Origin: Hydrurus foetidus
Lineage: Eukaryota
Assembly: GCA_900617105.1 (NCBI GenBank)
Contig: UYFQ01000001.1
Location: 3,658,001 to 3,722,000, forward strand
Reading direction: 5' to 3'
DNA length: 64,000 bases
A program made the translations under genes and the position numbers. The notes beneath the pieces are model-generated. The model saw only the letters and a program-made list of their open reading frames with translations. It ran no database searches and had not been told where the DNA came from. Positions 1,784-61,486 of this stretch are shown piece by piece. Every line of letters begins with the position of its first letter. Within the stretch, counting starts at the first letter, position 1.

Positions 1784-2917
1784 TCAAGCAGGGTAAATCG
1801 CACCCAGCACGCGCAGCCCCGCCGCGCCCGTCACGCTGGGTAAATTGCCCGGTAGCCGCAAAACGGTCTGGCGAGCCAGCCACGCAAACGCTGCCGCTTC
1901 TACATCCAAAGGCGCCAGGCCATGCACGCAAGAGGGCACCACTTTCAGTGACGGCAAACCCGCTTGCAAACGCTGCATCAGGTGTGAGTTAAACGCACCG
2001 CCGCCGCAAACGATCAACTCTTTACTATCATTTAAATAGCTGCTTGCGCCCGTAATACAAACCCTTGCGGTGAATTCGGTTAGTGTAAATTGAATATTCT
2101 GCGGTTTTTCAGCCGAAAACGGCGCCAGCTTGCCAGCCAGCCACGCAGTGCTAAATAAATCTCGCCCGCAACTTTTAGGCGGCGGTTTGGCAAAGTAGGG
2201 CTCAGCCAGCAAGCTGGCCAACAAGGGCTCAATCAACTGGCCGCTGGCAGCCCACGTGCCGCCCTCGTCGTACGCGTGGCCGGTATGCTGTTGGGCCCAA
2301 GCGTCCATCAGCGCATTGCCGGGCCCACAGTCAAAACCCAGCACTTCGCCTGGTGCCGACGCCGCTGGCAAAACACTCAAATTGGCAATGCCGCCCACAT
2401 TAAGCACCAGCGCCTGGCTATTCGGCGCGCCAAACACGCTGCGGTGAAACGCAGGCACCAGTGGTGCGCCGTGCCCGCCCGCCGCCACGTCGCGGCTGCG
2501 AAAGTCCGCGACCACATCAATGCCGCATACCTCAGCCAGCAGGGCCGGGTTATTTAACTGCAGGCTGTAACTGGCACTGGTGCCCGCGGGGGTGTGCCCC
2601 TGCTGCGGTTGGTGCCTGACGGTTTGGCCGTGCGCACCAATGGCAGTGACGTCGGCCGCAATTTTGTCAGCTTGGTCTAAAAGCGTGGACACTACGCCGC
2701 CATAAAGGGCCGCCAGCTGATTGGCTGCCAGCGCGGCGCGGTGCAGTTCGTTGTGTGACGGGCTGTTCAGCGCCAGCAACTCGGCGCGAAACTCGTTTGA
2801 AAACGCAGTGCTTGCGCTGGCTACGACCCTAAGTTGCGGCTGAGAAAAATCGACCAGAACGCCGTCTGCACCATCGAGCGAGGTCCCTGACATCAGGCCA
2901 ATGTAAAGGCCGGTCAT
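1784..2917 (-). CDS. anmK: Anhydro-N-acetylmuramic acid kinase
   Basis: GLMSGTSLDG, HGQTVRH, DFRSRDVAAGG.GAPLVP, FDCGPGN motifs. Confidence 0.95.
   Translation of the reverse strand: MTGLYIGLMSGTSLDGADGVLVDFSQPQLRVVASASTAFSNEFRAELLALNSPSHNELHRAALAANQLAALYGGVVSTLLDQADKIAADVTAIGAHGQTVRHQPQQGHTPAGTSASYSLQLNNPALLAEVCGIDVVADFRSRDVAAGGHGAPLVPAFHRSVFGAPNSQALVLNVGGIANLSVLPAASAPGEVLGFDCGPGNALMDAWAQQHTGHAYDEGGTWAASGQLIEPLLASLLAEPYFAKPPPKSCGRDLFSTAWLAGKLAPFSAEKPQNIQFTLTEFTARVCITGASSYLNDSKELIVCGGGAFNSHLMQRLQAGLPSLKVVPSCVHGLAPLDVEAAAFAWLARQTVLRLPGNLPSVTGAAGLRVLGAIYPA
2024..2064 (+). repeat. 48-bp dyad element copy (partial) inside anmK, antisense
   Basis: ACTA-tcatttaaa-TAGC-tgcttgc-GCCC-gtaatacaa; encodes CITGASSYLNDS. 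Confidence 0.75.
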
Positions 2918-2921
2918 GGAA

Positions 2922-4304
2922 CTACTCTGCCCGGGTTTGGCCTATGGTGGCGCCGGCCTGTAGTTGCGAATTCACCGTTGCGGCCAACATCTTGAACTGG
3001 GTCATGGCGGCTTCAGGCAGCGTCACGGTGTCGCTTTGCTTGGCAATGGTCATGGGGTCCTGGTGCACGCCGTTCACGCGGAATTCAAAATGCAAATGTG
3101 GCCCCGTTGACCAACCTGTTGTGCCGACCAGCCCGATGGTGTCGCTCTGGCTGACCTTGGCGCCAACCCGCACATTTATTTTGCTGAGGTGTGCGTACAG
3201 GGTTTCGTGGCCATTGCGGTGCGTGATGATCACCACGTTGCCGTAACCGCCTTGCACGCCTGCAAATGAAACGACCCCATCGCCTACGGTGCGGGCGGGC
3301 GTGCCAGTGGGCGCCGCAAAATCAGTGCCCAAATGCGCGCGCCACTTTTTCGCAATCGGGTGAAAGCGCATCGAAAAACCGCTGGTCACGCGCGAAAACT
3401 CAAGCGGGGTGCTCAAGTAACCACGGCGCAGGCTTTTGCCGTCTAAACCGTAATAGCCGCCTTTATAGGCAATGCCTTGGGCGTCTACGCCGCCTGCCTG
3501 GTACCACATGGCCTGGTGCGCCTTGCCTGCGTTAACAAACTCAGCCGACACCACGCGGCCAGCTCGCAGGGGCTCGCCATCGGCTTCTAATGTTTCATAA
3601 ACCACGCTAAACCTGTCACCCTTGCGTAGCGCTTTGCGAAAGTCGATTTCGGTTGAAAACATCTCGGCAATTTGGGTTGCCACATGGTCGGGAATACCGG
3701 CGTCGTCGGTCGCGGAAAACAATGAGCTTTGAATCACGCCGCTGGCCAGGCGCGCGTTCGCTACGTAAGGAGCAGTCTCAACACGCGATGCCAGCCCGGC
3801 TGCTGTGCGCTCTACTACCAGGCGGTTGAAATGTTTTTCATCGTCGGCCGGCCAGCGAAAAGTCAGCTTTTGCAGTGCCTGCGTGTCGGTGGCTTCAGCG
3901 GTGACGTTTTTACCTACGCGGCCGGCCAGCAAAATTTTGGCATTGATGTCTTTGCGCAAAAACGCTGCTGCTCCCGGGTCATTGATGTTCAGGCGCTTGA
4001 GCAGCGTGTCAAAGGTATCGCTGCTGCGGGTGCTCTCGGTACGGTACAACTTGAAGCCGTGGACGGCCAATGCATCGAGCTGGGTTTGTAGCGGCAGTGT
4101 TTGCACTGCCTCAAACACCTGGCGCACTGGCAAGTCAGCTGCGTCTGGCGCCAATGGTGCTACGCCGAAAGCGGTAACGCCTGTGCCCAGTAAAAGTGCA
4201 GCAAAACTGCCGGTGACCCGTTTGGGGTGACGGCGCAAGCTGGCTGCGGTGGCGTGAGAAGCAGAAATCAGATCGGCAAGTATCAAAGTCAGTGGTCCCG
4301 GCAA
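2922..4304 (-). CDS. M23 family peptidoglycan endopeptidase (MepM-like)
   Basis: HLGTD and GPHLHFE zinc motifs; N-terminal TM; start uncertain. Confidence 0.9.
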   Translation of the reverse strand: MPGPLTLILADLISASHATAASLRRHPKRVTGSFAALLLGTGVTAFGVAPLAPDAADLPVRQVFEAVQTLPLQTQLDALAVHGFKLYRTESTRSSDTFDTLLKRLNINDPGAAAFLRKDINAKILLAGRVGKNVTAEATDTQALQKLTFRWPADDEKHFNRLVVERTAAGLASRVETAPYVANARLASGVIQSSLFSATDDAGIPDHVATQIAEMFSTEIDFRKALRKGDRFSVVYETLEADGEPLRAGRVVSAEFVNAGKAHQAMWYQAGGVDAQGIAYKGGYYGLDGKSLRRGYLSTPLEFSRVTSGFSMRFHPIAKKWRAHLGTDFAAPTGTPARTVGDGVVSFAGVQGGYGNVVIITHRNGHETLYAHLSKINVRVGAKVSQSDTIGLVGTTGWSTGPHLHFEFRVNGVHQDPMTIAKQSDTVTLPEAAMTQFKMLAATVNSQLQAGATIGQTRAE

Positions 4305-4408
4305 CAGTCAATTTCAGGGCAAACTACCTGACACTTAAAATAGCGCCATCCGTAGCAAAGGCATCAGTATATCTGTCAGCAGATGCCCGAAAGTGTAAAA
4401 AACCCCTT

Positions 4409-5653
4409 ATGAATCATCAAGTTTCAAATTCGCCAGTGACCAATTACCCAGTGACCGATTCCGTAAAAAACGCCTTGGCCGTATCTTTGCGTGGGTGCGA
4501 GGAGCTGATACCGCAAGACGAGTGGGTTAAAAAGCTCGCCAAGTCAGAAGCCACCGGCGTGCCGCTGCGCATCAAGCTCGGCCTGGACCCCACCGCGCCA
4601 GACATTCATTTGGGCCACACCGTGGTGCTGAACAAAATGCGCCAGCTGCAGGACCTGGGCCACACGGTAATTTTTTTGATTGGCGACTTCACCAGTTTGA
4701 TAGGCGACCCGTCGGGCCGCAACACCACGCGCCCACCGCTAACGCCTGAGCAAATCAAGGCCAACGCCGAAACGTACTACAAACAAGCCAGCCTAGTGCT
4801 GGACCCAGCCAAAACCGAGATTCGTTACAACAGCGAATGGTCAGACCCGCTGGGCGCGCGCGGCATGATTCAGTTAGCCGCCAAGTACAACGTGGCCCGC
4901 ATGATGGAGCGCAAGGATTTTCATGACCGCTTCAAGGCCGGCACACCGATCAGCGTGCATGAATTTTTGTACCCGCTGATGCAGGGCTACGACTCAGTGG
5001 CACTCAAAAGCGACCTGGAACTGGGCGGCACCGACCAAAAATTCAACCTGCTGGTCGGCAGGCACCTACAGGCCGAATACGGCCAGGAGCCGCAATGCAT
5101 TTTGACCATGCCACTGCTAGAGGGCATCGACGGCGTGGAGAAAATGTCCAAAAGCAAGCACAACTACATCGGCATTTCAGAGGACGCGAACACGATGTAC
5201 GCCAAGGTGCTCAGCATTTCTGATGTGCTGATGTGGAAGTGGTTCACGCTGCTGTCGTTCAAAAGCGAGCTAGAGATTGCCGCGCTAAAAGCCGAGATTG
5301 ACGGCGGGCGTAACCCGAAAGACGCCAAAGTGATGTTGGCCAAAGAAATCACGGGGCGTTTTCACTCAAGTGCTGCGGCTGATGCTGCAGAGCAAGACTT
5401 CATCAACCGAAGCAAGGGCGGTGTGCCTGATGAGATTGAGGAGCGAGCCATCACCGGCGCACCCATGGGCATAGGCGCAGTGCTTAAAGCCGTGGGGCTG
5501 GCATCTTCTGGCGGTGACGCGACCCGGCTGATTGACGGCGGCGGCGTGCGGGTCGATTCCAGCGTGGTCAGCGACAAAGGCTTGAAGCTGGATGCCGGCA
5601 CGTACGTGGTGCAGGTGGGCAAGCGCAAGTTTGTGCGGGTTACGTTGGGCTGA
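4409..5653 (+). CDS. tyrS: Tyrosine--tRNA ligase
   Basis: DPTAPDIHLGH, KMSKS, C-terminal S4 domain. Confidence 0.97.
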   Translation: MNHQVSNSPVTNYPVTDSVKNALAVSLRGCEELIPQDEWVKKLAKSEATGVPLRIKLGLDPTAPDIHLGHTVVLNKMRQLQDLGHTVIFLIGDFTSLIGDPSGRNTTRPPLTPEQIKANAETYYKQASLVLDPAKTEIRYNSEWSDPLGARGMIQLAAKYNVARMMERKDFHDRFKAGTPISVHEFLYPLMQGYDSVALKSDLELGGTDQKFNLLVGRHLQAEYGQEPQCILTMPLLEGIDGVEKMSKSKHNYIGISEDANTMYAKVLSISDVLMWKWFTLLSFKSELEIAALKAEIDGGRNPKDAKVMLAKEITGRFHSSAAADAAEQDFINRSKGGVPDEIEERAITGAPMGIGAVLKAVGLASSGGDATRLIDGGGVRVDSSVVSDKGLKLDAGTYVVQVGKRKFVRVTLG

Positions 5654-5754: not shown

Positions 5755-5802
5755 GCTATATATTTAAGAGCTGTTTGCGCCCATATTCATTGGGCTAGAG
5801 GC
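5755..5802 (+). repeat. 48-bp dyad element copy, intergenic (tyrS/ybeY)
   Basis: GCTA-tatatttaa-GAGC-tgtttgc-GCCC-atattcatt-GGGC-tagaggc. Confidence 0.85.
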
Positions 5803-5833
5803 CTAATTTATACCTGAAAAGCATCAAATTAGC

Positions 5834-6289: not shown

Positions 6290-7292
6290 TTTTGCCTGTA
6301 GCCCTTGTTTTACGTGCGCGAGCAGCTACTTTATTAGTAGCGTTGACGGTATCGGTCGGCGTAGACTGCGCAGCGTCGTACGCATCCACAATTCGCGCCA
6401 CCAGCGGGTGTCGCACTACATCTAGACTGGTCAAGCGCGTGATCGCGATGCCGTTCACGCGCTTTAAGACCCGCTCAGCATCGACCAAGCCGCTGAGCTG
6501 CGTGCGCGGCAAATCGACCTGACTCACATCACCTGTCACCACTGCCTTGCTGCCAAAGCCGACGCGGGTTAAAAACATTTTCATCTGCTCAGGCGTGGTG
6601 TTTTGCGCTTCGTCCAAGATTACAAACGCGTGGTTCAGCGTGCGGCCCCGCATAAAGGCCAGTGGCGCAATTTCAATTTGCTGGCGCTCAAACGCTTTTT
6701 GTACCCGCTCAAAACCCATCAGCTCATGCAGCGCGTCCCACAGCGGGCGCAGGTAGGGGTCGACTTTCTGGCTCAAATCACCCGGCAAAAATCCCAGCCG
6801 CTCGCCCGCTTCCACCGCCGGGCGAGTCAGCACAATGCGCTGTACCGCGCTGCGCTCCAGCGCATCTACCGCGCAGGCTACTGCCAGGTAGGTTTTGCCC
6901 GTACCGGCGGGGCCAATGCCAAAGGTGATGTCATGCGTGGCAATGTTTTCGAGGTAAGCCCCTTGGTTCACGGTGCGGGCGCGCAGGTCAGCGCGCCGGG
7001 TGGTCAGGGTGGGGCTGCCGTCAGCCGACAACTTTAACGCCGTGTCGCCAGACATCATGAGCTGCACGGTTTCCTCGGCAATCGGCCGCTGCGCCATTTC
7101 ATAGAGCGCCTGCAGAACTTCAAGCGCTTGGGTGGCACGCGCCTTCGTGCCGTCAATCTTGAACTGCTCAAAGCGGTGCGCAATTTTGACGTCCAGTCCG
7201 ACCTCAATCGTGCGGATGTGTGCATCCATCGGGCCGCACAAGTGGCCCATTCGGGTATTGTTCGGCGGCGTGAAGGTATGGCGAAGGATCAA
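6279..7292 (-). CDS. phoH: PhoH-family ATPase (YbeZ)
   Basis: GPAGTGKT, RPAVEAGERLGFLPG, DEAQN; TTG start at 7292 inferred. Confidence 0.92.
   Translation of the reverse strand: MILRHTFTPPNNTRMGHLCGPMDAHIRTIEVGLDVKIAHRFEQFKIDGTKARATQALEVLQALYEMAQRPIAEETVQLMMSGDTALKLSADGSPTLTTRRADLRARTVNQGAYLENIATHDITFGIGPAGTGKTYLAVACAVDALERSAVQRIVLTRPAVEAGERLGFLPGDLSQKVDPYLRPLWDALHELMGFERVQKAFERQQIEIAPLAFMRGRTLNHAFVILDEAQNTTPEQMKMFLTRVGFGSKAVVTGDVSQVDLPRTQLSGLVDAERVLKRVNGIAITRLTSLDVVRHPLVARIVDAYDAAQSTPTDTVNATNKVAARARKTRATGKNDS
6294..6341 (-). repeat. 48-bp dyad element copy forming the PhoH C-terminal tail
   Basis: GCTA-ctaataaag-TAGC-tgctcgc-GCAC-gtaaaacaa-GGGC-tacaggc = ATNKVAARARKTRATG. Confidence 0.85.
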
Positions 7293-7373
7293 GGGTTGAA
7301 TGTCCTGAAAATTGGGTTGAACGGCGATTGTCCGCTGATATTCGAGCGCTGGGGTGGCTGATAACATTACCCC

Positions 7374-7946
7374 ATGATTGGAAGAATTCAAGGCTCGCTA
7401 GCCGAAAAGAACCCCCCAGAAATTCTGGTCGACTGCAATGGCGTGGGCTACGAGCTGCTGGTGCCCATGAGCACGTTTTACAACCTGCCTGGTTTGGGCG
7501 AAAAAGTCAGCCTGCTCACGCATTTTGTGGTGCGTGAAGACGCGCAAATCTTGTACGGCTTCGCTACGTCAACCGAACGCGCCGCCTTCAGGCAGCTGGT
7601 CAAAATATCCGGCGTAGGCCCGCGCACCGCACTCAGCGTGCTCAGCGGCATGAGCGTTGAAGAGCTCGCTCAGGCCGTTACGCTGCAGGAAATGGGCCGC
7701 ATCATCAAGGTGCCCGGCATCGGCAAAAAAACCGCCGAGCGTTTGCTGCTGGAACTCAAAGGCAAGCTGGGCGCAGACATCGGCGTGAATGTCTCAATCA
7801 CCAACGACAGCCAGTCAGACATCTTGCAGGCGCTGGTAGCGCTGGGCTACAGCGACCGCGATGCAGCCCTGGCGCTCAAGGCGCTGCCTAAGGACATTGG
7901 GGTGTCTGATGGGATTAAGCTGGCGTTGAAGGCGTTGGCGAAGTAA
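7374..7946 (+). CDS. ruvA: Holliday junction branch migration protein RuvA
   Basis: [27 protein letters not shown] motifs. Confidence 0.97.
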
Positions 7947-7964
7947 CGGAATAAGGTGAATCTA

Positions 7965-9176
7965 ATGCAAATCGAATCACTGCGGCTTAAAAATTTCAGA
8001 TCCTTCAAAGATGTGACATTGAAAGACATACCAAAATTTTGCGTGCTGGTAGGCGCAAATGGAACTGGTAAAAGCACACTATTTTCAGTTTTTGCATTTT
8101 TAAGAGATGCAATGACAACAAATGTCACGGCGGCCTTAGGCCGACTTGGTGGTAGCCGTGGTTTTGCTGAAGTGCGGAGTCGAGGAACCAGTGGTCCAAT
8201 TGAAATAGAGATCAAGCTACGAACTACCTTGTCTGAAGGGCGTTCTAGGTTGATTACATACGAATTACATATCGATGACTCAAGCGGTAGGCCTTCGGTT
8301 GTTTGCGAAATATTGCAGTATCGGCGCGGAAGCCGCGGAAAACCGTGGAAGTTTCTCGATTTTTCCAACGGTGTTGGCGAGGCAGTTACGAACGAACTTG
8401 ACACGGTTACGGATGAGCGTGATCTTGTCCGCGAGCAGCAAACTTTAAAAAGTCCTGACATCCTTGCCATTAAGGGACTGGCTCAGTTTGAACGATTCCC
8501 CGCAGTAGTCGCGCTAGGTAATCTCATTGAAAACTGGCATTTATCCGATTTTCACATCAGCAGAGCACGCCCTGAGGCCGAAGCAGGCTATGCCGAGCAC
8601 TTGTCTCGCGAAGGGGAAAACCTTTCGTTGGTCATCGAATACTTGCATCGAAATCATCTACAAATATTTGAAAAGATACTAAATCGCTTAAAACAATGCG
8701 TACCGGGCGTCACACATGTTGAGGCAAAAACCACCGAGGAGGGGCGAGTTCTTCTTAAGTTTCAAGATGGTGCATTTGAAGACCCTTTTTTGGCGCGATA
8801 CGTTTCAGATGGAACTATCAAAATGTTGGCTTACTTGGTTTTGTTATACGACCCTCATCCCTCTCCTTTGTTGTGTGTTGAAGAACCAGAAAATCAGTTG
8901 TATCCATCTTTACTTTGGGATCTAGCAGAAGAATTTCGGAGGTATGCTGAAAGCGGAGGGCAAGTATTTGTCACAACCCATTCGCCAGATTTTCTTAATG
9001 CAATTGAGTTAAGTGAAGTATTTTGGTTGGTGAAGGCAAACGGATTTACCGACGTACACCGGGCTGCGGATGACCTTCAACTTCAAGCCTACATGCAGGA
9101 CGGCGATCAAATGGGGTATCTTTGGAAACAAGGATTATTTGAAGGTGCAGATCCATCGGTAGGTGGACATGGTTGA
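7965..9176 (+). CDS. ABC-type AAA ATPase (AAA_15/AAA_21, OLD/AbiEii-like)
   Basis: Walker A GANGTGKS, signature SDGT, Walker B CVEEPEN, TTHSP; AT-richer than neighbours. Confidence 0.85.
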   Translation: MQIESLRLKNFRSFKDVTLKDIPKFCVLVGANGTGKSTLFSVFAFLRDAMTTNVTAALGRLGGSRGFAEVRSRGTSGPIEIEIKLRTTLSEGRSRLITYELHIDDSSGRPSVVCEILQYRRGSRGKPWKFLDFSNGVGEAVTNELDTVTDERDLVREQQTLKSPDILAIKGLAQFERFPAVVALGNLIENWHLSDFHISRARPEAEAGYAEHLSREGENLSLVIEYLHRNHLQIFEKILNRLKQCVPGVTHVEAKTTEEGRVLLKFQDGAFEDPFLARYVSDGTIKMLAYLVLLYDPHPSPLLCVEEPENQLYPSLLWDLAEEFRRYAESGGQVFVTTHSPDFLNAIELSEVFWLVKANGFTDVHRAADDLQLQAYMQDGDQMGYLWKQGLFEGADPSVGGHG

Positions 9177-9732
9177 AAATCTCGTTATCCTGCTAGAAGA
9201 GCCATCGGCTAAAGATTTTTTGCAGGCAATTCTCCCAACGATGTTGCCGAGCCATATCACTCCAATTTTTATAGTCTTTGAAGGTAAGCAAGATCTAGAA
9301 AAGCAGTTGGTCAGAAAATTGAGGGGTTGGTTGCGACCGCATTCAGCATTTCTAGTCATGCGCGATCAAGACGGTAGCGATTGTTTGGATGTCAAAAATC
9401 GGCTTGTGGCACTTTGTGCTGAAGCTGGTAAACCTGATGCAATAGTCAGGATCGCGTGTCGTGAACTGGAGTCTTTCTTTTTGGGAGATTGGCAAGCCAT
9501 AGCACAAGCCTACGCTAGGCCGTCGTTAAGTAACCATGCCAGAACTGCAAAATACAGAAGTCCTGATAACTTGGGAAGCCCAAGTCTGGAATTAAAGCGC
9601 GTTATTCCCAACTATCAAAAACGCGAGGGTGCACGCCGCATTGCTCCGAACCTAGAACTAGTACCAGGCAGGAATCGATCTCAAAGCTTCAATGCGCTTA
9701 TTGCATCACTCAAAAAGTTTGCGGTTGCATGA
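9163..9732 (+). CDS. DUF4276-like (TOPRIM-like) protein
   Basis: LLEEPS..., [15 protein letters not shown] motifs; overlaps ATPase stop and ruvB start. Confidence 0.7.
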
Positions 9733-10793
9733 CCATTCAAACCGACGACTTCAACCTGGCCGACCTGCCGCCCTCACGGCGCGTCATGTCTGCCGCACCT
9801 GATTCCCCCAAAGAAGAAGCGATTGAGCGCGCCCTGCGCCCCAAGCTGTTTGACGAATATGTCGGCCAGACTAAGGTGCGCGACCAGTTGGAGATTTTTA
9901 TTGGCGCTGCCAAAAAACGCAGCGAGGCGCTTGACCACGTGCTGCTGTTTGGCCCGCCGGGTTTGGGCAAAACCACGCTGAGTCACATTATTGCGCATGA
10001 GCTAGGCGTGAACATGCGGCAAACCAGTGGCCCGGTGCTTGAAAAACCCAAAGACCTGGCGGCGCTGCTCACGAATCTGGAAAAGAACGATGTGCTGTTC
10101 ATCGACGAGATTCACCGCTTAAGCCCGGTGGTTGAAGAGATTTTGTACCCGGCGCTGGAAGACTACCAAATCGATATCATGATCGGCGAAGGCCCAGCCG
10201 CTCGCAGCATCAAGCTTGATTTGCAGCCCTTCACGCTGGTGGGTGCCACCACGCGTGCCGGCATGCTGACCAACCCGCTGCGTGACCGTTTTGGCATCGT
10301 TGCGCGGCTGGAGTTTTATACCGCTGAAGAGTTGGCGAAAATCGTTAAACGCAGCGCCGGGCTGCTCAATGTGCCGACTGACGCGGAAGGCGGCTTTGAG
10401 ATTGCCAAACGTTCGCGCGGCACACCGCGCATCGCCAACCGTCTGCTACGCCGTGTGCGCGACTTTGCTGATGTGAAGGGCAAAGGTGAGATCACCCTTA
10501 GCATCGCCAACCAAGCGCTCGCCATGCTAGACGTCGACCCGCAAGGTTTTGACGTGATGGACCGCAAGCTGCTCGAATGCGTGATTCACCGCTTCGACGG
10601 CGGCCCCGTTGGGCTGGACAACATAGCCGCCAGCATTGGTGAAGAGCGTGACACGATTGAAGACGTGATTGAACCGTATTTAATTCAACAGGGCTATTTG
10701 CAGCGCACGCCGCGTGGGCGTATTGCTACGTTGGCGGCATACCGGCATTTGGGCGTTGCTCCCCCAGCTTCTGGCGCCGAGCTGTTCACTTAG
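9729..10793 (+). CDS. ruvB: Holliday junction DNA helicase RuvB
   Basis: [23 protein letters not shown] motifs. Confidence 0.98.
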
Positions 10794-11498: not shown

Positions 11499-12106
11499 CT
11501 GGGTATTTCAACATTAACCCGGCGACTACCGGTGGGTGGCTGCGGAAACCCGAGTAAAGCAGAGTCCAGCATGGCTGGCAGCACAGCCAAAAAGTCGCCT
11601 GACGGGCCGTCGTTAACGGCGCGTGTTTCAAACACGACTTTTTGTGTAGCCAGCTCGCGCATCAAAACGGTCACGCTGCGTTTGTAGTATGGCGTGCTAA
11701 AACCAAACGGAAACGACAAACCCACCGAGCCGCCTAAACTGCCGCCGCCAATAAAAACGCCTGGCCCACCCACACCAAAGCCGCTGTCTGAATAGCGCTG
11801 CAGCACTTCGGTAGCGGCCACAACCTGTACTGCGTATTTGGCATCAGGCACGCTTAGCGCCATGCCGACTTTCGTCAAGCTGGTGGTGGCAATCGCTTCT
11901 ACCTTATCTTGATCGGCACCCGCGCTGATTTGCGACGGCAGCCTTTCAAAGCGGTAGCGGGTGTTGGGGCCAGGCGGGGTGGAGCTCCATGCTGAAAACG
12001 CAGTCACATCGCTGTCTACCAGGCGCATGCCTGAGCAGCCAGACAATGCCAAAACAGCTATTAATATAATAGCTGTTTGCGCCCGTGTTAATTGGGTAAA
12101 AAGCAT
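11495..12106 (-). CDS. Lipoprotein (DUF4136-like)
   Basis: Lipobox LSGC; Gly-rich central segment. Confidence 0.7.
   Translation of the reverse strand: MLFTQLTRAQTAIILIAVLALSGCSGMRLVDSDVTAFSAWSSTPPGPNTRYRFERLPSQISAGADQDKVEAIATTSLTKVGMALSVPDAKYAVQVVAATEVLQRYSDSGFGVGGPGVFIGGGSLGGSVGLSFPFGFSTPYYKRSVTVLMRELATQKVVFETRAVNDGPSGDFLAVLPAMLDSALLGFPQPPTGSRRVNVEIPR
12057..12106 (+). repeat. 48-bp dyad element copy covering the lipoprotein start and signal peptide (antisense)
   Basis: GCTA-ttaatataa-TAGC-tgtttgc-GCCC-gtgttaatt-GGGT-aaaaagc. Confidence 0.85.
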
Positions 12107-17390: not shown

Positions 17391-18242
17391 CTACTTTTTA
17401 TTGTCTGGTGAAGCGGCTGGTGATACGGGCGGTGCGTCGGGCATTAATGAAAAGTCGCGCGCAAACTTCATCAAGTGTTGGCCACCATCGACCAGCAGTG
17501 TGGTGCCGGTAATCGACTGGTTATCTAGTGCAAATTTAACCGTAGCTGCAACGTCCGCCGGCGTAGACGACCGGCCGAGCGGCGACAGTTTGTGCAGCGC
17601 TTCAAACTGCGCGTCGCTCAGCAAGTGGCTGGTTAGCGTTAGCCCTGGCGCCACGCCTACCACCCGCACCAGCGGGGCCAGCGCCATGGCCAGCATGGTG
17701 TTGGCGGCTTCCAGCGCGGCTTTTGACAGGGTGTAACTCAAAAAATCGGGGTTTTGGTTCCACAGCTTTTGGTCGAGCAAATTCACCACCGCGCCGCGAG
17801 CTGACGTTTCGCCGCGCGCCGATGTGTCGCCAGCGGCGTTACGGCTGGCCAGGTGGGTGTGCAATGCCTGCGCCAGCAAAATCGGCGCGCCGGTGTTGCT
17901 GCGCAGGTGGTTTTCAAGCGCGGCGAAGCTAAAAGTAGCCGCATCGTCTTGCTCGAAGGCAGACGCACTGTTGACCACAGCATCAACCCGGCCAAACCTG
18001 GCTATTACTTGGGGTAAAAGTGCTTTAACGTCTGATTCTGATCCTAAATCAGCATAAAAAAGGTCTGAATCACCCTGAATTTGGGCGCAAGCAGCTACTG
18101 TTTCAATAGCGTCTTGTTTGGAGCTGCGGTAGTGCACAGCCACACGCCAGCCGCCGGTAGCAAGCGCCAAAGCGATTTCGCGGCCCAGTCGCTTGGCGGC
18201 GCCGGTAACTAAAACAACGGGGGCAGGGGTGGTGAGCGGCAT
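17391..18242 (-). CDS. SDR oxidoreductase (pteridine reductase/FolM-like)
   Basis: TGAAKRLG, YTLSK, VDGGQHL; adjacent to folB. Confidence 0.85.
   Translation of the reverse strand: MPLTTPAPVVLVTGAAKRLGREIALALATGGWRVAVHYRSSKQDAIETVAACAQIQGDSDLFYADLGSESDVKALLPQVIARFGRVDAVVNSASAFEQDDAATFSFAALENHLRSNTGAPILLAQALHTHLASRNAAGDTSARGETSARGAVVNLLDQKLWNQNPDFLSYTLSKAALEAANTMLAMALAPLVRVVGVAPGLTLTSHLLSDAQFEALHKLSPLGRSSTPADVAATVKFALDNQSITGTTLLVDGGQHLMKFARDFSLMPDAPPVSPAASPDNKK
18063..18110 (-). repeat. 48-bp dyad element copy inside SDR gene
   Basis: GCTA-ttgaaacag-TAGC-tgcttgc-GCCC-aaattcagg = AIETVAACAQIQG. Confidence 0.8.
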
Positions 18243-24761: not shown

Positions 24762-25900
24762 ATGGCTTGAGCAATCAGCTCACCATTTTTCTGACCTGTG
24801 GCGCCCGCGTTAATTGCTTCTTTCGCTATATTTTCGGTAGCAACTTCTTGCGCTGCAACAAGCGCGCGCTCTAGCCTGGTGCTTTGCCCGGCAGCGTCTA
24901 AAAGATCACAAGCCAGCAACACTTGGCCAAAGCGTTGTGGCCGCCTGAACGCATCGCAACGTTCAAGCAACTGCACCAGGCCGTCCGCATCAAGCGCCGT
25001 ACTGCCAGCCACATGCGCATGCTCGCGTGCCACCAAACCGGCCAGCTCGCGGCACTCGACCGGGACGCGCAACCGCTCACACAATGCGCTAATTATTGAA
25101 CTTATTAAATTGGGGTCAGACTCCAATTGTTTTACGCTGCTGCTCACCATGCAGGCAAAGCGCACGGGCAGTGGCGCACAAGCACCTGCTGCGCGGTCAA
25201 TCACCGCATCAGCGCCTGCATTCCACGCGAGCTCAGGCAGCAACTTTTGCAGCGCGCCACATGTCTCTAAAACGTGCATCATGCGCGATGGCTTGGCTTC
25301 CATCAGGCCGCGCGACAGCTCTTGCCACACGCGCTCAGCCACCAGCGCGTCTGCCTCGCCAGCGGTCACCATGTTGGTCATCAGTTGCATGGTCTCTGGT
25401 GCCACGCTGAAGTCTGCAAAGCGCGCCGCAAACCGCGCTACCCGCAAAATGCGCACCGGGTCTTCAGCAAATGCCTCAGTCACATGCCGGAGCACCTTTG
25501 CAGCAATGTCGCGCTGGCCACCATGCGGGTCAATCAAATGCGCTGGATTCAGGTCAACTTGCACGCCAAATCGCTCTGTAGCCCAATCAATCAGTGCGCA
25601 AGCAGCTATTGAATTTATAGTTAAATCGCGCCGGGCCAGGTCTTGATCTAACGTCACATCGGGGGCGGCATGCACGCTAAAGCCGTGGTAGCCGCGTGCG
25701 GTTTTGCGCTCGGTGCGGGCCAGCGCATACTCTTCTTTGGTGGTCGGGTGTAAAAAAACCGGAAAGTCTTTGCCGACTGGCAAAAACCCGCGCGCGGCCA
25801 GCTCTTCAGGCGTGCTGCCGACCACCACCCAGTCGCGGTCTTGCACAGGCAAGCCCAGCAAGGCATCGCGCACCGCACCCCCGACCATGAAAATTTCCAT
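24707..25900 (-). CDS. cca: CCA tRNA nucleotidyltransferase (HD domain degenerate)
   Basis: [34 protein letters not shown]. Confidence 0.93.
24794..24841 (-). repeat. Degenerate 48-bp dyad element copy in cca C-terminus
   Basis: GCTA-ccgaaaata-TAGC...ccacagg = [16 protein letters not shown], same frame and register as other copies. Confidence 0.55.
25108..25128. repeat. Short palindrome AATTGGGGTCAGACTCCAATT inside cca
   Basis: 10-bp arms with one G-T mismatch; partial copy TCAGACTCCAATT at ~50215-50227. Confidence 0.65.
25574..25621 (-). repeat. 48-bp dyad element copy overlapping the cca RRDLTIN motif
   Basis: ACTA-taaattcaa-TAGC-tgcttgc-GCAC-tgattgatt-GGGC-tacagag = [16 protein letters not shown]. 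Confidence 0.85.
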
Positions 25901-28965: not shown

Positions 28966-29013
28966 TGCTGTAGCCAAATAAATACGGGCGCTAGCAGCTC
29001 CTGAATAAGTAGC
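28966..29013 (-). repeat. 48-bp dyad element copy downstream of hicB
   Basis: GCTA-cttattcag-GAGC-tgctagc-GCCC-gtatttatt-TGGC-tacagca. Confidence 0.85.
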
Positions 29014-29020
29014 AGATAAT

Positions 29021-30035: not shown

Positions 30036-30083
30036 GTCTTTAAACCAATAAATACGGGCGCAAGCAGCTACTAAATAAATAGC
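30036..30083 (-). repeat. 48-bp dyad element copy downstream of slt
   Basis: GCTA-tttatttag-TAGC-tgcttgc-GCCC-gtatttatt-GGTT-taaagac. Confidence 0.85.
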
Positions 30084-36408: not shown

Positions 36409-36456
36409 GCTATAAAAACAGAAGCTGTTACTGGCCTTTTTTATGCGGCTAGAAGG
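36409..36456 (+). repeat. Degenerate 48-bp dyad element copy, intergenic
   Basis: GCTA-taaaaacag-AAGC-tgttact-GGCC-ttttttatg-CGGC-tagaagg. Confidence 0.65.
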
Positions 36457-38617: not shown

Positions 38618-40046
38618 GTCAGTTGTTGCTCCCACATTGCCAGCTTATCCAGTTGATGTCGTCATCATGGCCGCGGGCAAAGGCACGCGAATGAAAAGTG
38701 CACGGCCCAAAGTATTGCACCGACTAGGTGGCAACGCCTTGCTGGGCCATGTGGTTGACTGCGCTGCCGAACTGGCGGTGCGCCGCATGGTGGTCATCAC
38801 GGGTCACGGTGCTATCGAAGTAGAAGCTGCTTGCGCCCTATTTCAGGGGGCTACGGGCGCGTTTGACTTGAAATTCGCGCGCCAAAACCCACAATTAGGC
38901 ACTGGCCACGCGGTGCAACAAGCCGTGCCGCTGCTGGGTGATGACGGAGTGACGTTGATTTTGAATGGCGACGTGCCCTTGATTGCAGTGCAAACGCTGC
39001 GCAATTTGATTGCCGCTTGCCACGGCAGCAAGTTGGCCCTGCTGACACTGACCATTGCGGACGCCACCGGTTACGGCCGAATTGTGCGCAACTCCAAAAA
39101 TGAAGTTTTGGCGATTGTGGAACACAAAGACGCCACGCCCGCCCAGCGCGACATACGCGAGTTTTACACCGGCGTGATGGCGGTGCCCAACGCATTGATC
39201 AAGGGTTGGCTGGCGCGCCTGACCACCCACAACGCCCAGGGCGAGTACTACCTGACAGACCTGGTGGCGCTGGCCGTGGCAGATGGCGTGGCAGTCGTGG
39301 CGACCCACCCCGACAACGAAGCCGAAGTATCAGGCGTGAACGACCCCCAGCAACTGGCGGCCCTGGAGCGTGCCTACCAGCAGCGCCGGGCAATGGCGTT
39401 AATGGAGCAAGGCGTGCGCCTGGCCGACCCGGCCCGCTTTGACGTGCGCGGCAAACTAACCTGCGGGCAAGACGTTGAGATTGACGTGAACTGCGTGTTT
39501 GAAGGTGCTGTGGCGCTGGGCCACAACGTGCGAGTAGGCGCTAACTGCTTTATAGCCAATTGCACGATTGCTGACGGCGCTGTGATTCACCCCTTTACCC
39601 ATATAGATGGTGAAAAGCTTGGCGTGAGCGTAGGCGACGGCGCGCTTATTGGCCCGTTTGCCCGCCTGCGGCCCGGCGCGCAATTGGGCGCTGATGTCCA
39701 CATCGGCAATTTTGTCGAGGTCAAAAATTCAACTCTGGCCAAAGGCGCCAAAGCCAACCACCTGGCCTATGTGGGCGACGCAACGCTGGGCGAGCGCGTC
39801 AACTTCGGTGCAGGCAGCATCACTGCAAACTACGACGGCGCCAACAAGCACCGCACCGTGATTGAAGCTGACGTACACATTGGCAGCAACTGCGTGCTGG
39901 TCGCGCCCGTCACCATAGGCGCAGGCGGCACCGTTGGCGGCGGCAGCACGATCAGCAAAAGCACTGAGCCTGGCGGCCTGCACGTAGCGCGGGCTAAGCA
40001 GGTGAGCTTGCCAAACTGGAAGCGGCCTGTGAAGGCTAAAAAGTAG
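38616..40046 (+). CDS. glmU: Bifunctional UDP-GlcNAc pyrophosphorylase/acetyltransferase
   Basis: AAGKGTRMKS..PK, GEYYLTD, hexapeptide repeats, NYDGANK. Confidence 0.97.
   Translation: MSVVAPTLPAYPVDVVIMAAGKGTRMKSARPKVLHRLGGNALLGHVVDCAAELAVRRMVVITGHGAIEVEAACALFQGATGAFDLKFARQNPQLGTGHAVQQAVPLLGDDGVTLILNGDVPLIAVQTLRNLIAACHGSKLALLTLTIADATGYGRIVRNSKNEVLAIVEHKDATPAQRDIREFYTGVMAVPNALIKGWLARLTTHNAQGEYYLTDLVALAVADGVAVVATHPDNEAEVSGVNDPQQLAALERAYQQRRAMALMEQGVRLADPARFDVRGKLTCGQDVEIDVNCVFEGAVALGHNVRVGANCFIANCTIADGAVIHPFTHIDGEKLGVSVGDGALIGPFARLRPGAQLGADVHIGNFVEVKNSTLAKGAKANHLAYVGDATLGERVNFGAGSITANYDGANKHRTVIEADVHIGSNCVLVAPVTIGAGGTVGGGSTISKSTEPGGLHVARAKQVSLPNWKRPVKAKK
38811..38858 (+). repeat. 48-bp dyad element copy inside glmU
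   Basis: GCTA-tcgaagtag-AAGC-tgcttgc-GCCC-tatttcagg-GGGC-tacgggc = AIEVEAACALFQGATG. Confidence 0.85.
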
Positions 40047-40059: not shown

Positions 40060-40090
40060 TGACGTACAATTTATAAATTAATGTACGTCA
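40060..40090. promoter_or_regulatory. Putative TA operator
   Basis: Perfect TGACGTACA-N13-TGTACGTCA inverted repeat overlapping a TTGACG hexamer upstream of the antitoxin. Confidence 0.65.
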
Positions 40091-40118
40091 GTCATGTTGT
40101 TCCTGCTTGGAGATCACG

Positions 40119-40825: not shown

Positions 40826-40828
40826 TCT

Positions 40829-40876
40829 GCTATTTAATCAGGAGCTGCTCGCGCCCGTACTTATTGGGCTATAAGC
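40829..40876 (+). repeat. 48-bp dyad element copy overlapping the Lrp stop codon
   Basis: GCTA-tttaatcag-GAGC-tgctcgc-GCCC-gtacttatt-GGGC-tataagc. Confidence 0.88.
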
Positions 40877-41346: not shown

Positions 41347-41481
41347 TTTCATACTTTAAATGAAAGAAATGCTCAGAATTATCTGTAGTAGAAATTTAAT
41401 TTCATAAATGTTAAAAAATTAGTGAAAATAAAAAACTAAAAGTCCGTAGCATCAGCACGACTAAATTCAAGGAGAAAGCTG

Positions 41482-43764: not shown

Positions 43765-43783
43765 GAATCGCCCTCAATCAAAC

Positions 43784-44044
43784 TTATTCAAACGTGGTGC
43801 CTTGAACGGTGAGATTGAGGCGAGGCGGCTCGAAATCGATGTTGTCCCCGCCCGCAATGCCGTCCATCACGTCGAGCAGTGAAGACGGTTTTTGCCCAGC
43901 AATACGGTAGTAGTCATTAATTTCAAGCAGCGCAAAAGCCGGTCGTCCCCGGTCTGTGATGAACACAGGGCCGTTGGCAGTTGCACGCTTGGCTGCAGAC
44001 ACGTCACGGGTGAAGTCGCGGCTGGAGAAGGTGTGGATGGCCAT
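43784..44044 (-). CDS. Phd/YefM antitoxin
   Basis: SSRDF..AKRA..GPVFITDRGRP. Confidence 0.88.
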   Translation of the reverse strand: MAIHTFSSRDFTRDVSAAKRATANGPVFITDRGRPAFALLEINDYYRIAGQKPSSLLDVMDGIAGGDNIDFEPPRLNLTVQGTTFE

Positions 44045-44258
44045 GTTGATAGCTGCAATTAAATAAATGTTTGTATGTTACGACAAATTAGCGGGATAAT
44101 CAAATGAAGGTTTGTACAAAACGTTCTGCAAGCCTAGGCACACTGCCAAGGCGTTGAATAACCGTGTGGATCTACTGTCAGCTTAATCCCGTTCTTCATA
44201 GAAGAGGCAGAGCTGGCGTTCGTGAAGCCTAGTCACTGCAACTGTTAGAAATTAAAGT

Positions 44259-48035: not shown

Positions 48036-48171
48036 AGCATCTTTCTGGGACCGGCTGTCAGTGCAGGACATTGATGACGAGCTGGAATTCCCCCAAATCG
48101 GTCGGCAGCTACCACCTGACTTAAAGTCACAAGTCATTTCAAAAATCTGGAGCGGTTAAATCTTTATTCCT

Positions 48172-50211
48172 TTGGCCGACGCCAACGCTGTCCCCACCGG
48201 CGTTTTTTCTACCGACCCTTGCGCTGTTGAAAAAGAGTTACGCCACGTGCGCGCACTCATGCAACTTGAGCAAAACGAAGACGCGGCGCAGTTCAAACTC
48301 AAAAATGCCAAGGCCAGCATCGGGGAGCGCCAGCGGCGCGGCTTGACTTGGTACCCCATCACCATCACCAAGGAAGACATCGGCTTTGGCGGCAAAGTGG
48401 TGCTGGAGCTGGAGCGCCCTGCTGGCGAGCAAGGGCTGCACTTGTTTCAGGTGGGCAAGAATGCGTCGCTGTTTAGCAATGCGCCCGGCTACTCAGCTAC
48501 CGACCGACCTGCGCTTAATGGCGTTATTACCAGTGTGCGGCGCAACAAGCTGCTGCTGGCAACCACCAAGGAAGAGCTTCCTGACTGGATAAATGAAGGG
48601 GGCAAGCTGGGCATCGATTTAACCTTCGATGAGGTGAGCTACCGCGAGATGGAGAACGCGCTGAGCGAAGTGATGCGCGCACGTGACAACCGCTTGGCCG
48701 AGCTGCGCGATGTGCTGCTGGGCGCCCGGCAGGCGAGCTTTCGTGCGCACAAGGCCGACGATCTGTTCTACCCCAGCCCACTCAACGACTCGCAGCTGGC
48801 GGCCGTGCGCCACGTGATAACAGCGCAAGACGTGGCCATCATCCACGGCCCGCCCGGCACTGGCAAAACCACCACACTGGTGCAGGCCATCCTGGAAACC
48901 ATCCGGCGTGAGCGGCGTGTGCTGGTGTGCGCACCGTCGAACACGGCCGTGGACCTGCTCACTGAAAAGCTGGCCGAGCGCGGCGTCAACGTCATCCGTA
49001 TGGGTAACCCCAGCCGCGTATCAGACTTGCTGCTGCAGCACACCCTCGATGCGCGCGTGATGGCTCACCCGAGCTACGCCAAGATGCGCGCGATGCGCGA
49101 GACCGCCGCGCAGCACCGCAACACTGCCAGCCAAAGTGCCGACGTGCATGCCCGCCAATTTGGCTTTGAAGGGCGGGAACAGCGCCGGCAGTTAAGAGAC
49201 GAAGCCCGAACGCTTTCGCAAGCAGCCGACGACCTGGAGCGCTTTATCACCGAAGACGTGCTCGACTCGGTGCAGGTTATTACTAGCACGCTGGTGGGTG
49301 CCAGCAACCGCAACATTCGCCACCTGACTTTCGAGACCGTCTTCATCGACGAAGCCGCCCAGGCGCTGGAACCGGGCTGCTGGATTCCGATTGCCAAGGG
49401 CCAGCGCGTGGTGTTGGCGGGCGACCACCACCAGCTACCACCCACTGTGAAAAGCGAAAAAGCTGCAAGAGAAGGCCTGCGCGAAACGCTGTTTGAAAAG
49501 TGCATCAAGCGCCAGCCAGACACGGCCCGCATGCTGACCGTGCAGTACCGCATGCACGAGCAAATCATGGCGTTTAGCTCCGAGCAGTTTTATGGCGGCC
49601 AATTGGAGGCGCACACTAGCGTGCGCCACGTCGATTTGGAAGCGTACGACGAAAGTTTCGCGCCCGACCTGCCTGTGGAATTCATCGACACGGCTGGTCT
49701 AGGCTTTCTTGAAATCACCATTCCCGAAAGCCGCTCCACGGCCAACCCTGAAGAAGCGGATTTACTGCTCAGGCGTCTCGCCGAGCTGCTGGAACGCTAC
49801 GACTCGGCCGCGCACGATCACGACGCGCTCATGTCGCTTTCCATCGGCGTGATTGCCCCCTACCGCGCCCAAATCAATTATTTGAAAGACGCCATCGAAG
49901 AAAACGACGCGCTCAACGGTCTGCAACAGAAGCGCATGCTCAGCGTGGGCACGGTCGATTCGTTTCAGGGCCAAGAGCGCGACATCATTGCTATTTCACT
50001 GACGCGTAGCAACAGCCATGGCGAGATCGGTTTCTTGTCAGACATCCGCCGCATGAACGTGGGCATGACCCGCGCTCGCCGCAAATTACTGCTCGTCGGC
50101 GACTCTTCTACGCTCAGCTCTAATACGTTTTTCAAGGACTTGCTGGCCCACGTGAAGCGCATGGGTGGCTACCGCACCGAACAATCGGCGAACAACGAAA
50201 AATCGCAATGA
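48172..50211 (+). CDS. Upf1/IGHMBP2-like SF1B helicase
   Basis: GPPGTGKT, SNTAVD, DEAAQ, GDHHQL, QYRM, VDSFQG, NVGMTRAR. Confidence 0.9.
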   Translation: MADANAVPTGVFSTDPCAVEKELRHVRALMQLEQNEDAAQFKLKNAKASIGERQRRGLTWYPITITKEDIGFGGKVVLELERPAGEQGLHLFQVGKNASLFSNAPGYSATDRPALNGVITSVRRNKLLLATTKEELPDWINEGGKLGIDLTFDEVSYREMENALSEVMRARDNRLAELRDVLLGARQASFRAHKADDLFYPSPLNDSQLAAVRHVITAQDVAIIHGPPGTGKTTTLVQAILETIRRERRVLVCAPSNTAVDLLTEKLAERGVNVIRMGNPSRVSDLLLQHTLDARVMAHPSYAKMRAMRETAAQHRNTASQSADVHARQFGFEGREQRRQLRDEARTLSQAADDLERFITEDVLDSVQVITSTLVGASNRNIRHLTFETVFIDEAAQALEPGCWIPIAKGQRVVLAGDHHQLPPTVKSEKAAREGLRETLFEKCIKRQPDTARMLTVQYRMHEQIMAFSSEQFYGGQLEAHTSVRHVDLEAYDESFAPDLPVEFIDTAGLGFLEITIPESRSTANPEEADLLLRRLAELLERYDSAAHDHDALMSLSIGVIAPYRAQINYLKDAIEENDALNGLQQKRMLSVGTVDSFQGQERDIIAISLTRSNSHGEIGFLSDIRRMNVGMTRARRKLLLVGDSSTLSSNTFFKDLLAHVKRMGGYRTEQSANNEKSQ

Positions 50212-50251: not shown

Positions 50252-50299
50252 GTCTTTAGCCCAATAAATACAGGCGCAAGCAGCTGCGATTTACATAGC
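50252..50299 (-). repeat. 48-bp dyad element copy at the right edge of the accessory block
   Basis: GCTA-tgtaaatcg-CAGC-tgcttgc-GCCT-gtatttatt-GGGC-taaagac. Confidence 0.85.
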
Positions 50300-53514: not shown

Positions 53515-53564
53515 AGGCCTGTAGCCCAATAAATACGGGCGCGAGCAGCTACTATTTCAATAGT
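53515..53564 (-). repeat. 48-bp dyad element copy overlapping the rph stop codon
   Basis: ACTA-ttgaaatag-TAGC-tgctcgc-GCCC-gtatttatt-GGGC-tacaggcct. Confidence 0.9.
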
Positions 53565-61241: not shown

Positions 61242-61312
61242 GGTGTGACGTGGTGTGGCAAGGCGGGACCGGTGCGCTTTGTAGCAGTGTATTCCAGCTT
61301 GGGAGCCAAAAC

Positions 61313-61360
61313 GCTATAAAAATAATAGCTCTTCACGCCCGTAAATAAGCGGCTTCGGCT
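61313..61360 (+). repeat. 48-bp dyad element copy (left of inverted pair)
   Basis: GCTA-taaaaataa-TAGC-tcttcac-GCCC-gtaaataag-CGGC. Confidence 0.75.
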
Positions 61361-61438
61361 ACTTTTCTCTTGAAAAAAGGCTAATTTTGGGTTTTTTGGG
61401 CTGCGCGCTGCCTAAAGCCAGTTTTGAGTGCATTTAAG

Positions 61439-61486
61439 TGCTAAAACTCAATGAATACGCGCGTGAGCAGCTGCTAATTTAATAGC
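61439..61486 (-). repeat. 48-bp dyad element copy (right of inverted pair)
   Basis: GCTA-ttaaattag-CAGC-tgctcac-GCGC-gtattcatt-GAGT. Confidence 0.75.

Follow-up and report, generated by a model that had tools for sequence, protein, structure and literature searches.

A dispersed two-dyad element in a 64-kb window

The DNA analysed here is a stretch of 64,000 nucleotides from contig UYFQ01000001.1 of assembly GCA_900617105.1, filed under Hydrurus foetidus (positions 3,658,001 to 3,722,000 of the forward strand; hereafter the window, with position 1 at its first base). Its genes, which include anmK, tyrS, ybeY, phoH, cca, glmU and rph, are interspersed with copies of a short repeat made of two different dyads joined by a linker, and this element is the subject of the present work. 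The family to which the copies belong is ancient, and it occupies vertically inherited fixed sites both between and inside genes.

The first-pass annotation of the window had listed 16 copies and expected them to exceed a shuffled background. We searched the window with the pattern GCTA-N9-TAGCTGCTYGCGCCC-N9-GGGC, allowing up to three mismatches, and found 11 matches, against 0 in each of 100 dinucleotide shuffles, which bears out that expectation. An nhmmer profile built on these 11 matches, which as seeds match it by construction, reports 15 sites in the window at E<1e-3. The four that were not seeds are 61439-61489 on the minus strand (E=3e-9) and, on the plus strand, 2024-2056 (6e-6), 61310-61358 (7e-5) and 36407-36455 (2e-4). 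Fifteen of the 16 listed positions are thereby backed, those at 2024, 36409 and 61313 as partial or degenerate copies. The remaining one, at 24794, reaches only E=9 over 16 bases; we rejected it as a copy, since what lies there is a dyad-1-like remnant on the minus strand that has neither linker nor second dyad. Pfam annotation of the 62 open reading frames (ORFs) of the window places 5 of the 15 copies in genes (anmK, phoH, a short-chain dehydrogenase gene, cca and glmU) and the other 10 in spacers, usually 0-45 nt beyond a stop codon. The sites are listed below, with the evidence for each in brackets.

2024..2071, plus strand: partial copy (dyad 1, linker and 5' arm of dyad 2) in anmK, antisense, read as ...TGASSY... 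(nhmmer; AnmK Pfam match)
5755..5830, plus strand: full copy with tail between the convergent genes tyrS and ybeY (pattern, nhmmer; BLAST to other copies extends to about 5820-5830)
6294..6341, minus strand: sense copy in frame 0 that makes up the C-terminal tail of phoH and lies immediately upstream of ybeY (pattern, nhmmer, Pfam)
12057..12104, plus strand: intergenic copy 12 nt beyond the stop of a PP-loop gene, antisense to both neighbours (pattern, nhmmer, Pfam)
18063..18110, minus strand: in-frame sense copy in a short-chain dehydrogenase gene (AIETVAACAQIQG) (pattern, nhmmer, Pfam, frame)
24794..24841, remnant on the minus strand: listed site without support as a copy, dyad-1-like (nhmmer, E and length as above)
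25574..25621, minus strand: in-frame sense copy in cca, directly after the RRDLTIN motif (pattern, nhmmer, Pfam, frame)
28966..29013, minus strand: intergenic copy 7 nt beyond the hicB stop (pattern, nhmmer, Pfam)
30036..30083, minus strand: intergenic copy 9 nt beyond the stop of an SLT transglycosylase gene (pattern, nhmmer, Pfam)
36409..36456, plus strand: degenerate copy 43 nt beyond a DUF2917 gene (nhmmer)
38811..38858, plus strand: in-frame sense copy in glmU (GHG-AIEVEAACALFQGA) (pattern, nhmmer, Pfam, frame)
40829..40876, plus strand: intergenic copy 3 nt beyond the stop of a PIN-domain gene, which is convergent with an AsnC-type regulator gene (pattern, nhmmer, Pfam)
50252..50299, minus strand: intergenic copy between a helicase gene and a convergent asparaginase II gene (pattern, nhmmer, Pfam)
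53517..53564, minus strand: copy overlapping the rph stop codon and filling the rph-rdgB spacer (pattern, nhmmer)
61313..61360, plus strand: degenerate copy upstream of a Gre-factor gene, facing the next copy (nhmmer)
61439..61486, minus strand: degenerate copy downstream of two tRNA genes (nhmmer)

The hicA/hicB pair (29021-29616) is bracketed by the copies at 28966 and 30036, and a DUF6364/PIN pair (40107-40825) ends 3 nt ahead of the copy at 40829. The low-GC islands of the window hold no copies of the element.

Architecture of the full unit

To describe the element beyond the window, the representative genomes of GTDB were scanned for the exact core. The scan picked up at least 124 loci, almost all of them carrying the Polaromonas label, and their ungapped consensus (124 loci), ttGCTATtaatTtaaTAGCTGCTTGCGCCCGtaTttAtTGGGCTAgAGgCc.AttTgat.c.taAaaa.ggc, has no terminal inverted repeat, that is, no inverted repeat between its ends. 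Conservation extends past the 48-bp core into CTAGAGGCC.ATTTGAT and then into phased A-tracts. The order of the unit is dyad 1 (GCTAT-N7-ATAGC), the linker TGCTTGC, a second dyad that varies between lineages, CTAGAGGCC.ATTTGAT, and up to five A-tracts spaced about 10.5 bp apart. Over 123 loci, the starts of AAAA cluster at offsets 50, 61-62, 72-73, 82, 92 and 102-103 (counting from the first base), and the intervals separating these positions are nearly free of them. The downstream A-tracts are helically phased, which is the classic signature of intrinsically curved DNA.

Seen in this light, the 48-bp bipartite dyad of the first-pass annotation is a real core, and the unit as a whole is longer, about 65-105 bp with the phased A-tracts included. 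The fixed geometry that had been proposed holds, as both the A-tract phasing and the spacing of the dyads are kept over the loci. Two details need correction: the arms of the first dyad, given as 4 bp, are mostly 5 bp (GCTAT/ATAGC), and the tetranucleotide GTAG, said to be missing, is present in the 3' arm of dyad 1 in 37% of copies. Dyad arms measure 4-5 bp in Polaromonas and 5-7 bp in the other lineage-specific versions of the element, which we call dialects. Inverted pairs of copies are rare; examples are 61313/61439 in the window and 101123/101139 in the Polaromonas genome G030.

Distribution and dialects across genomes

It had been anticipated that the element might number many hundreds per genome, and this is the case. 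Polaromonas aquatica has 328 pattern matches, against 0 for the reversed pattern, and matches occur in 116 of 151 Polaromonas genomes, with 0 to 596 copies per genome and 0-2 in controls. These 151 genomes, which also serve the gene tallies given below (Y1_Tnp, ComEC, ComP_DUS), include one unpublished genome, G032, on which no claim depends. A family-wide sample of 301 genomes has matches in 105, including Simplicispira and Rhodoferax (136 copies in Simplicispira metamorpha, 49 in Candidatus Rhodoferax mariagerensis). With roughly one copy per 4-14 kb, the element ranks with the most abundant non-coding features in many genomes of Comamonadaceae. A looser pattern, consisting of dyad 1 and the linker with no more than two mismatches, gave 1-4 matches in each of five copy-free genomes, against 0-8 in the control, so that these genomes count as copy-free under it as well.

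All dialects share dyad 1 and the linker, and the second dyad is what tells them apart. Its arms read GCCCG/TGGGC, GCGCTTG/CAAGCGC, GCGCCCG/CGGGCGC, CTTGCGC/GCGCAAG or CTCGC/GCGAG, in a comparison based on one or two fetched copies per dialect together with the match listings. The symmetry centres of the two dyads remain some 23-24 bp apart while the arms of the second (4-7 bp) change. Genome G019 has a consensus of its own (...TGCTCAC...GGTC), the copies of G012 have GC-rich loops, and in genomes of the type of P. naphthalenivorans CJ2 the element ends in TGCGCAAAAG.

Fixed sites, age and constraint

The window was compared with four relatives, G057 (rph 99% identical) and the more distant G089, G136 and G078 (88-93%). 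A copy is retained in all 39 element-by-genome pairs that have a syntenic alignment, and no gains were seen: all 40 placeable elements in the syntenic DNA of the relatives map to copies of the window (3 further elements could not be placed, as their flanks have no match to the window). The partial copy in anmK is retained in G057, G089, G136 and G078 with 39-47 of its 48 bases identical, against 72-77% identity in the flanks of the three distant relatives. The copy at 12057 is retained in 4 of 4 close relatives, the one at 18063 in four relatives, the one at 28966 in G089, G136 and G078, and the one at 36409 in G057, with an element mapping to the same site in G089. An element of G057 also maps to the site at 50252. 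Core positions are 84.0% identical (794/945) and the mostly coding flanks 78.4% (7809/9958), with core identity exceeding flank identity in 22 of 27 pairs.

The copies of one genome are far less alike. Over 75 nt, their mean pairwise identity is 0.58 and the maximum 0.80, and the values differ by part, from 0.76-0.83 in the core to 0.53-0.56 in the loops and 0.34-0.38 in the tail. In contrast, a real mobile repeat in the Polaromonas genome G141 has 11 copies that are identical or nearly so over at least 90 nt. In the clade of the window, copies of the element no longer move.

The G141 repeat deserves a separate mention. This genome, which has no copies of the element and a GC content of 52%, carries the 11 copies within 400 kb (G141:C1, 1.0-1.4 Mb). 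The repeat starts with GGATTCAAGCTTGAAG and looks like the end of an active insertion sequence.

Insertion origin and concerted change

The copies clearly entered their sites as insertions of about 65-70 bp, because of what is seen in two places. The MoeA proteins of G030 and G001 have 23 extra codons between AVGRI and GAVLFGLPGNP relative to that of G019 (14-16 relative to G141, G002 and G121), and the 69 nt added there correspond to a full element in reverse complement. Of the 30 genomes fetched for the stretch after rph, 17 have a spacer between rph and rdgB that is about 65 nt long and made by the element, which nhmmer calls at E<=0.0014, and in the 12 genomes that lack it the spacer measures 13-40 nt. 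Two coding copies of the window offer no such contrast with an empty site among the genomes compared. The glmU segment that holds the copy has equal length in all Polaromonas compared, and the phoH tail is element-like in G030 and not in G019, G001 and G012, whose tails have a similar length. In view of the results for MoeA and cca, an old insertion followed by unequal decay could account for the glmU and phoH copies as well as point changes in place would, and we do not claim that these two copies arose in situ. The cca segment is present in all 120 best homologues.

Orthologous copies differ between genomes in the manner of the dialects. The cca copy is decisive in this respect, its position being tied to the codon that follows RRDLTIN. 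At this site, a CJ2-type genome has ...AGCGCAAAAGGCC (also given as ...GCGCAAAAGGCC) and G012 has a loop of its own type (GTCCCGCAAGGGC), and the encoded protein loop shifts from ACALIDWAT to APAHPDSAKG or ASPRPARAGA. An element is also found 3' of ybeY in G030, G019, G001 and G012, and the copy there matches the dialects of G019 and G012, a result that independent re-insertion into this spacer could also produce. The rph copy is degenerate in genomes that have few copies overall (G020, G142, G128 and G147). Dialects at orthologous sites and decay that tracks the genome therefore indicate that, within one genome, the copies at fixed sites undergo concerted evolution and also decay jointly. The sequence is re-tuned lineage by lineage, even where this rewrites protein loops, including those of essential genes.

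Genomic niche

The neighbourhood of the copies was studied in 400 kb of G030, which holds 53 of them, 16 in ORFs and 37 intergenic. Convergent genes border 18 of the 37 copies in spacers, compared with a 21% share of convergent pairs among the spacers (p=3e-4). Counted by spacer, occupancy is 17/67 for convergent, 11/181 for co-directional and 6/67 for divergent neighbours. Many copies begin 0-30 nt 3' of a stop codon. The copies thus favour the 3' ends of genes, convergent pairs above all. A replichore bias, put forward at first as worth testing, was not seen: over the whole 400 kb of this contig (G030:C9) the skew in GC stays negative, and the copies fall 29 on the plus and 24 on the minus strand. 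Inspection of the copy clusters of G030 for a linked gene brought out nothing that stood out.

About one third of copies are inside genes, in frame and in either orientation. Twelve of the 16 copy-bearing ORFs of G030 have Pfam matches, including HrpA, DnaE, NadE, SelO, PurL, MoeA and DnaX. Among 17 coding copies, 9 are sense and 8 antisense, and all are restricted to stop-free frames (AIxxIAACA..., ...GASSY... and ...LAQSxRAQ...). The copies distort alignments in the Comamonadaceae group, and gene calls too, at stop codons and start sites and through extra loops.

Relation to known systems

One dialect of the family had been met before. Tong, Schliekelman and Mrazek (2017, BMC Genomics 18:27, PMC5217627) report for P. 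naphthalenivorans CJ2 the "potential novel motif" ATAGCT(N)22CAAAAG, with 125 copies, of which 101 are intergenic, 34 lie between convergent genes and 18 are in genes. The same expression has 59+66 = 125 exact matches in genome G058 (0 and 2 in controls), 79 in G081, and 3, 2 and 1 in G057, G001 and G141. In G058 the matched sequence, ATAGCTGCTTGCGCCCG...TGCGCAAAAG, comprises dyad 1's 3' arm followed by the linker and the second dyad of the CJ2 dialect. The CJ2 motif is a dialect of the same element family, because the number of matches equals the published count and the matched sequences agree. Its niche is also the same, mostly intergenic, frequently between convergent genes and near gene ends, as for G030 (37/53 intergenic, 18 of these convergent) and the window (10/15 intergenic). 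In the passages of that paper on it, the motif is one of several detected statistically in a single genome, and they describe neither the element as a whole nor its distribution, dialects, orthology, insertions into genes or function. Acidovorax ebreus TPSY has the pair GCTTAT(N)5AAGCG, which is probably of the same family, judging from its resemblance to the Rhodoferax-type second dyad. In print, we found the family only as an orphan motif pair.

Another dispersed repeat of the genus, BRE, is reported from Polaromonas sp. JS666 (Hot et al. 2011, PMC3110155), with 29 copies, some of them in genes; it is described there as GC-rich (69%), 75-91 bp long and often in tandem. We rejected the identity of BRE with the present element, since the JS666 match at 79433-79480 has no GCTAT...ATAGC and BRE is GC-rich. 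G030 has among its commonest 14-mers a further repeat, rich in GC (..CGCGAAGCGACAAGCGTGGGGGC..; G030:C9, also G102:C1 79430-79510), which resembles BRE.

The closest analogues in behaviour are the repetitive extragenic palindromes (REPs), the bacterial interspersed mosaic elements (BIMEs) built from them, and the REPIN doublets served by REP-associated tyrosine transposases (RAYTs). These share with the element hundreds of short dyad copies at gene ends, long vertical persistence and a species-specific consensus at conserved places. They differ in build, as a REP is one imperfect palindrome of 20-40 nt, tagged 5' with GTAG or GGAG, whereas the element has two different short dyads in direct order, followed by phased A-tracts. 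Its copies are mostly single rather than in inverted pairs, a third of them are in genes, and the RAYT-like gene of these genomes has a REP of its own (see below). The element is in these respects REP/BIME-like but structurally distinct, and would on our reading be a signal in double-stranded DNA.

Like the Rickettsia palindromic elements (RPEs), the element is inserted in frame into ordinary protein genes as extra loops, with coding copies in cca, glmU, dnaE, dnaX, purL and others. Whole codons added to a tolerant loop of a conserved protein, by which RPEs are recognised, are found here too (MoeA and the 17 stop-free coding copies). The two differ in sequence, host group and size, and we know of no report of RPEs being re-tuned lineage by lineage.

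A candidate double-stranded DNA signal

Our preferred reading, which we hold tentatively, is that the element may be a signal in double-stranded DNA, read by a sequence-specific protein that keeps the copies tuned to the consensus of the lineage. We favour it over an RNA element or a live transposon because of the fixed geometry of about 100 bp, the phased A-tracts, the indifference to strand, the lasting fidelity to sites, a constraint that is modest though consistent, the concerted dialects and the decay across whole genomes in some lineages. A protein, plausibly as two dimers, would bind the element on one bent or wrapped stretch of DNA. Tuning could proceed through repair linked to the reader, conversion from other copies, or selection for binding, and loss of the reader would explain the decay of all copies in some lineages. 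A role in DNA architecture or topology where transcription units end would fit the bias to convergent genes. Such a role in bending or topology would resemble the relation of BIMEs to gyrase and IHF, as BIMEs are possibly bound by IHF, gyrase and Pol I.

Several observations weigh against this reading. We found no reader protein, so that binding is something we infer. The insertion origin of the copies resembles the behaviour of a selfish element. Whole clades of Polaromonas live without the element, and any role it has must therefore be dispensable. The core is conserved only modestly more than the flanks (84% vs 78%) and, between the window and the 98%-identical G057, elements diverge about as much as their flanks when judged by eye. 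A fixed symmetry centre with changing arms would also be expected of a hairpin recognised in single-stranded DNA. Finally, ectopic gene conversion alone could yield the dialects without any reader.

A bolder form of the double-stranded reading, which we consider somewhat unlikely, would have hundreds of fixed sites, one third lying in functional genes (cca, glmU, dnaE and moeA among them), continuously overwritten to the master sequence of the lineage by an enzyme system that reads the two-dyad bent signal. If true, it would amount to a genome-wide "maintained signal" distinct from REP-RAYT systems, uptake sequences and transposons. The combination of long-fixed sites, re-tuning by lineage and loss from whole clades offers a clean natural experiment through which a new system that reads or homogenises DNA might be found, and the family bears on how dispersed repeats persist in bacteria.

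Alternative explanations

The alternative that survives best, though we think it unlikely, is a selfish, non-autonomous unit of about 65-70 bp, akin to REPs and REPINs or to MITEs (miniature inverted-repeat transposable elements), spread and sustained at a low rate by a transposase acting on single-stranded hairpins and with only incidental effects on the host. The insertions in MoeA and in the rph-rdgB spacer speak for it, as do the hundreds of copies distributed patchily between lineages, the preference for gene ends, inverted arms that are specific to the dialect as in REP families, and an RTAG 8-9 nt upstream of the second dyad. It could also draw on a candidate transposase, a single-copy RAYT-like gene (Y1_Tnp, about 235 aa, MARLPRLT.PGYPHH...) present in 146 of the 151 Polaromonas genomes. 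That link was rejected, because the gene occurs regardless of copy number, copy-free genomes included, and because it has REP flanks of its own: at most of the 20 loci read (L167-L186) it is flanked by the inverted REP AATTGGGGTCAGACTCCAATT. The element adjoins the gene within 2.5 kb at only 3 of 24 loci scanned (L163, together with L170 and L169, both of which belong to the 20 loci fetched with 2.5 kb on either side). Against a selfish unit stand also the absence of any copy pair above 80% identity, where the mobile repeat of G141 is near-identical, the lack of gain or loss in 39 comparisons, the consensus ends without the terminal inverted repeat that, along with target-site duplication, marks a MITE, and the even distribution relative to GC skew, where transposition through single strands predicts a strand bias. 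Plasmid and phage collections searched at E<=1e-3 with one 81-nt query gave no match, a short AT-rich query of this kind having limited reach. The initial view that this is no classical REP or MITE is upheld in that there are no near-identical copies, retention is 39/39 and the element does not flank the RAYT-like gene.

One REP of the AATTGGGGTCAGACTCCAATT type is present in the window, at 25108-25128, within the 3' part of the cca ORF.

It is improbable, in our judgement, that the copies are functionless relics of an old burst, homogenised into dialects by ectopic gene conversion. Such a process would produce dialects at exactly orthologous copies, including coding ones whose protein changes; conserved stretches of 17-20 nt offer possible priming sites for short tracts of conversion, and the near-neutral divergence between the window and G057 would fit. 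However, RecA-dependent exchange usually needs roughly 25 bp, more than the perfectly conserved blocks provide, and conversion should carry the loops along, whereas these vary freely within a genome (53-56% identity). Relics would not be expected to keep A-tract phasing and dyad geometry, and the whole-genome decay in some lineages would need an added cause.

Very improbable is an uptake signal for natural transformation, tuned by biased uptake and recombination like the DNA uptake sequences (DUS) of Neisseria or the uptake signal sequences (USS) of Pasteurellaceae, an idea that the first-pass annotation had offered. Points of likeness are that the two strands hold equally many copies, that phased AT-rich tracts accompany the core, that there are dialects, and that copies lie inside genes in set frames. 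Moreover, pilins of the ComP_DUS family (PF16732), known as the DUS receptor of Neisseria, are found above the Pfam cut-off, mostly at full length, in 134 of the 151 Polaromonas genomes and in 0 of 14 controls. However, these pilins and ComEC (found in 135 of the 151 genomes) occur regardless of copy number, alike in genomes with hundreds of copies and in those with none (G002, G011, G014, G028, G141 and others), several high-copy genomes show only the generic pilin N-terminus, and no association of ComEC or ComP_DUS with copy number was seen by eye over the 151 genomes. The element is also much longer, richer in information and several-fold rarer than known uptake signals, and its intergenic copies add DNA to their sites rather than arise by point change. 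A k-mer count over 400 kb of the copy-free G141 gave no signal that might replace it.

In several genomes (G030:C12, G067:C12, G083:C28, G038:C108 and others), the "Competence" match of ComEC is split, with about 200-280 nt between its halves in one open frame. This split could be an in-frame insert.

Least probable of all is an element acting in RNA (a stabiliser of 3' untranslated regions, a processing site, a small RNA or a terminator), for although many copies start just beyond stop codons, 5 of 7 copies in co-directional spacers of the window are sense to the genes by hand count, and AGG/GGA motifs follow dyad 2 on its 3' side, the folds are no better than those of shuffled sequences, there is neither covariation nor an Rfam match, about half of the coding copies are antisense, the co-directional spacers of G030 hold 7 sense and 5 antisense copies, and few terminators follow. 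The figures behind this are z-scores of -0.01 to -2.1 for the folds of 6 copies, no covariation in either dyad beyond the fixed arms among 226 distinct copies, and terminator-like hairpins 3' of only 5 of 123 copies on the same strand. At the Rfam gathering score, the window has only two tRNAs and no match to the element, and a search around the rph copy at E<=5 gave three sub-threshold chance matches. Two RNA runs (X13 and X14, oligo-dT, chosen by species label) placed 0 reads on window positions 24001-44000, which is no test of expression. The early remark that the arms are too short for an RNA hairpin, and that the signal acts at the level of DNA, agrees with these folds, with the missing covariation and with the 9 sense and 8 antisense coding copies.

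Other features of the window

Between ruvA and ruvB (7956-9732) lie an ATPase gene (AAA_21/AAA_15) and a DUF4276 gene. G057 has no alignment to positions 6807-10206, where its contigs end, and this gene pair may be an inserted module. The stretch at 43784-50211 has a low GC content (0.49) and contains an ORF of 1258 aa that matches nothing in Pfam and, after it, an SF1 helicase gene (AAA_11/AAA_12); the stretch holds no copies of the element and may be an acquired island. Finally, a LysR-type regulator at 34767-35740 is divided over two overlapping ORFs (HTH_1 and LysR_substrate), which suggests a frameshift or a sequencing error.

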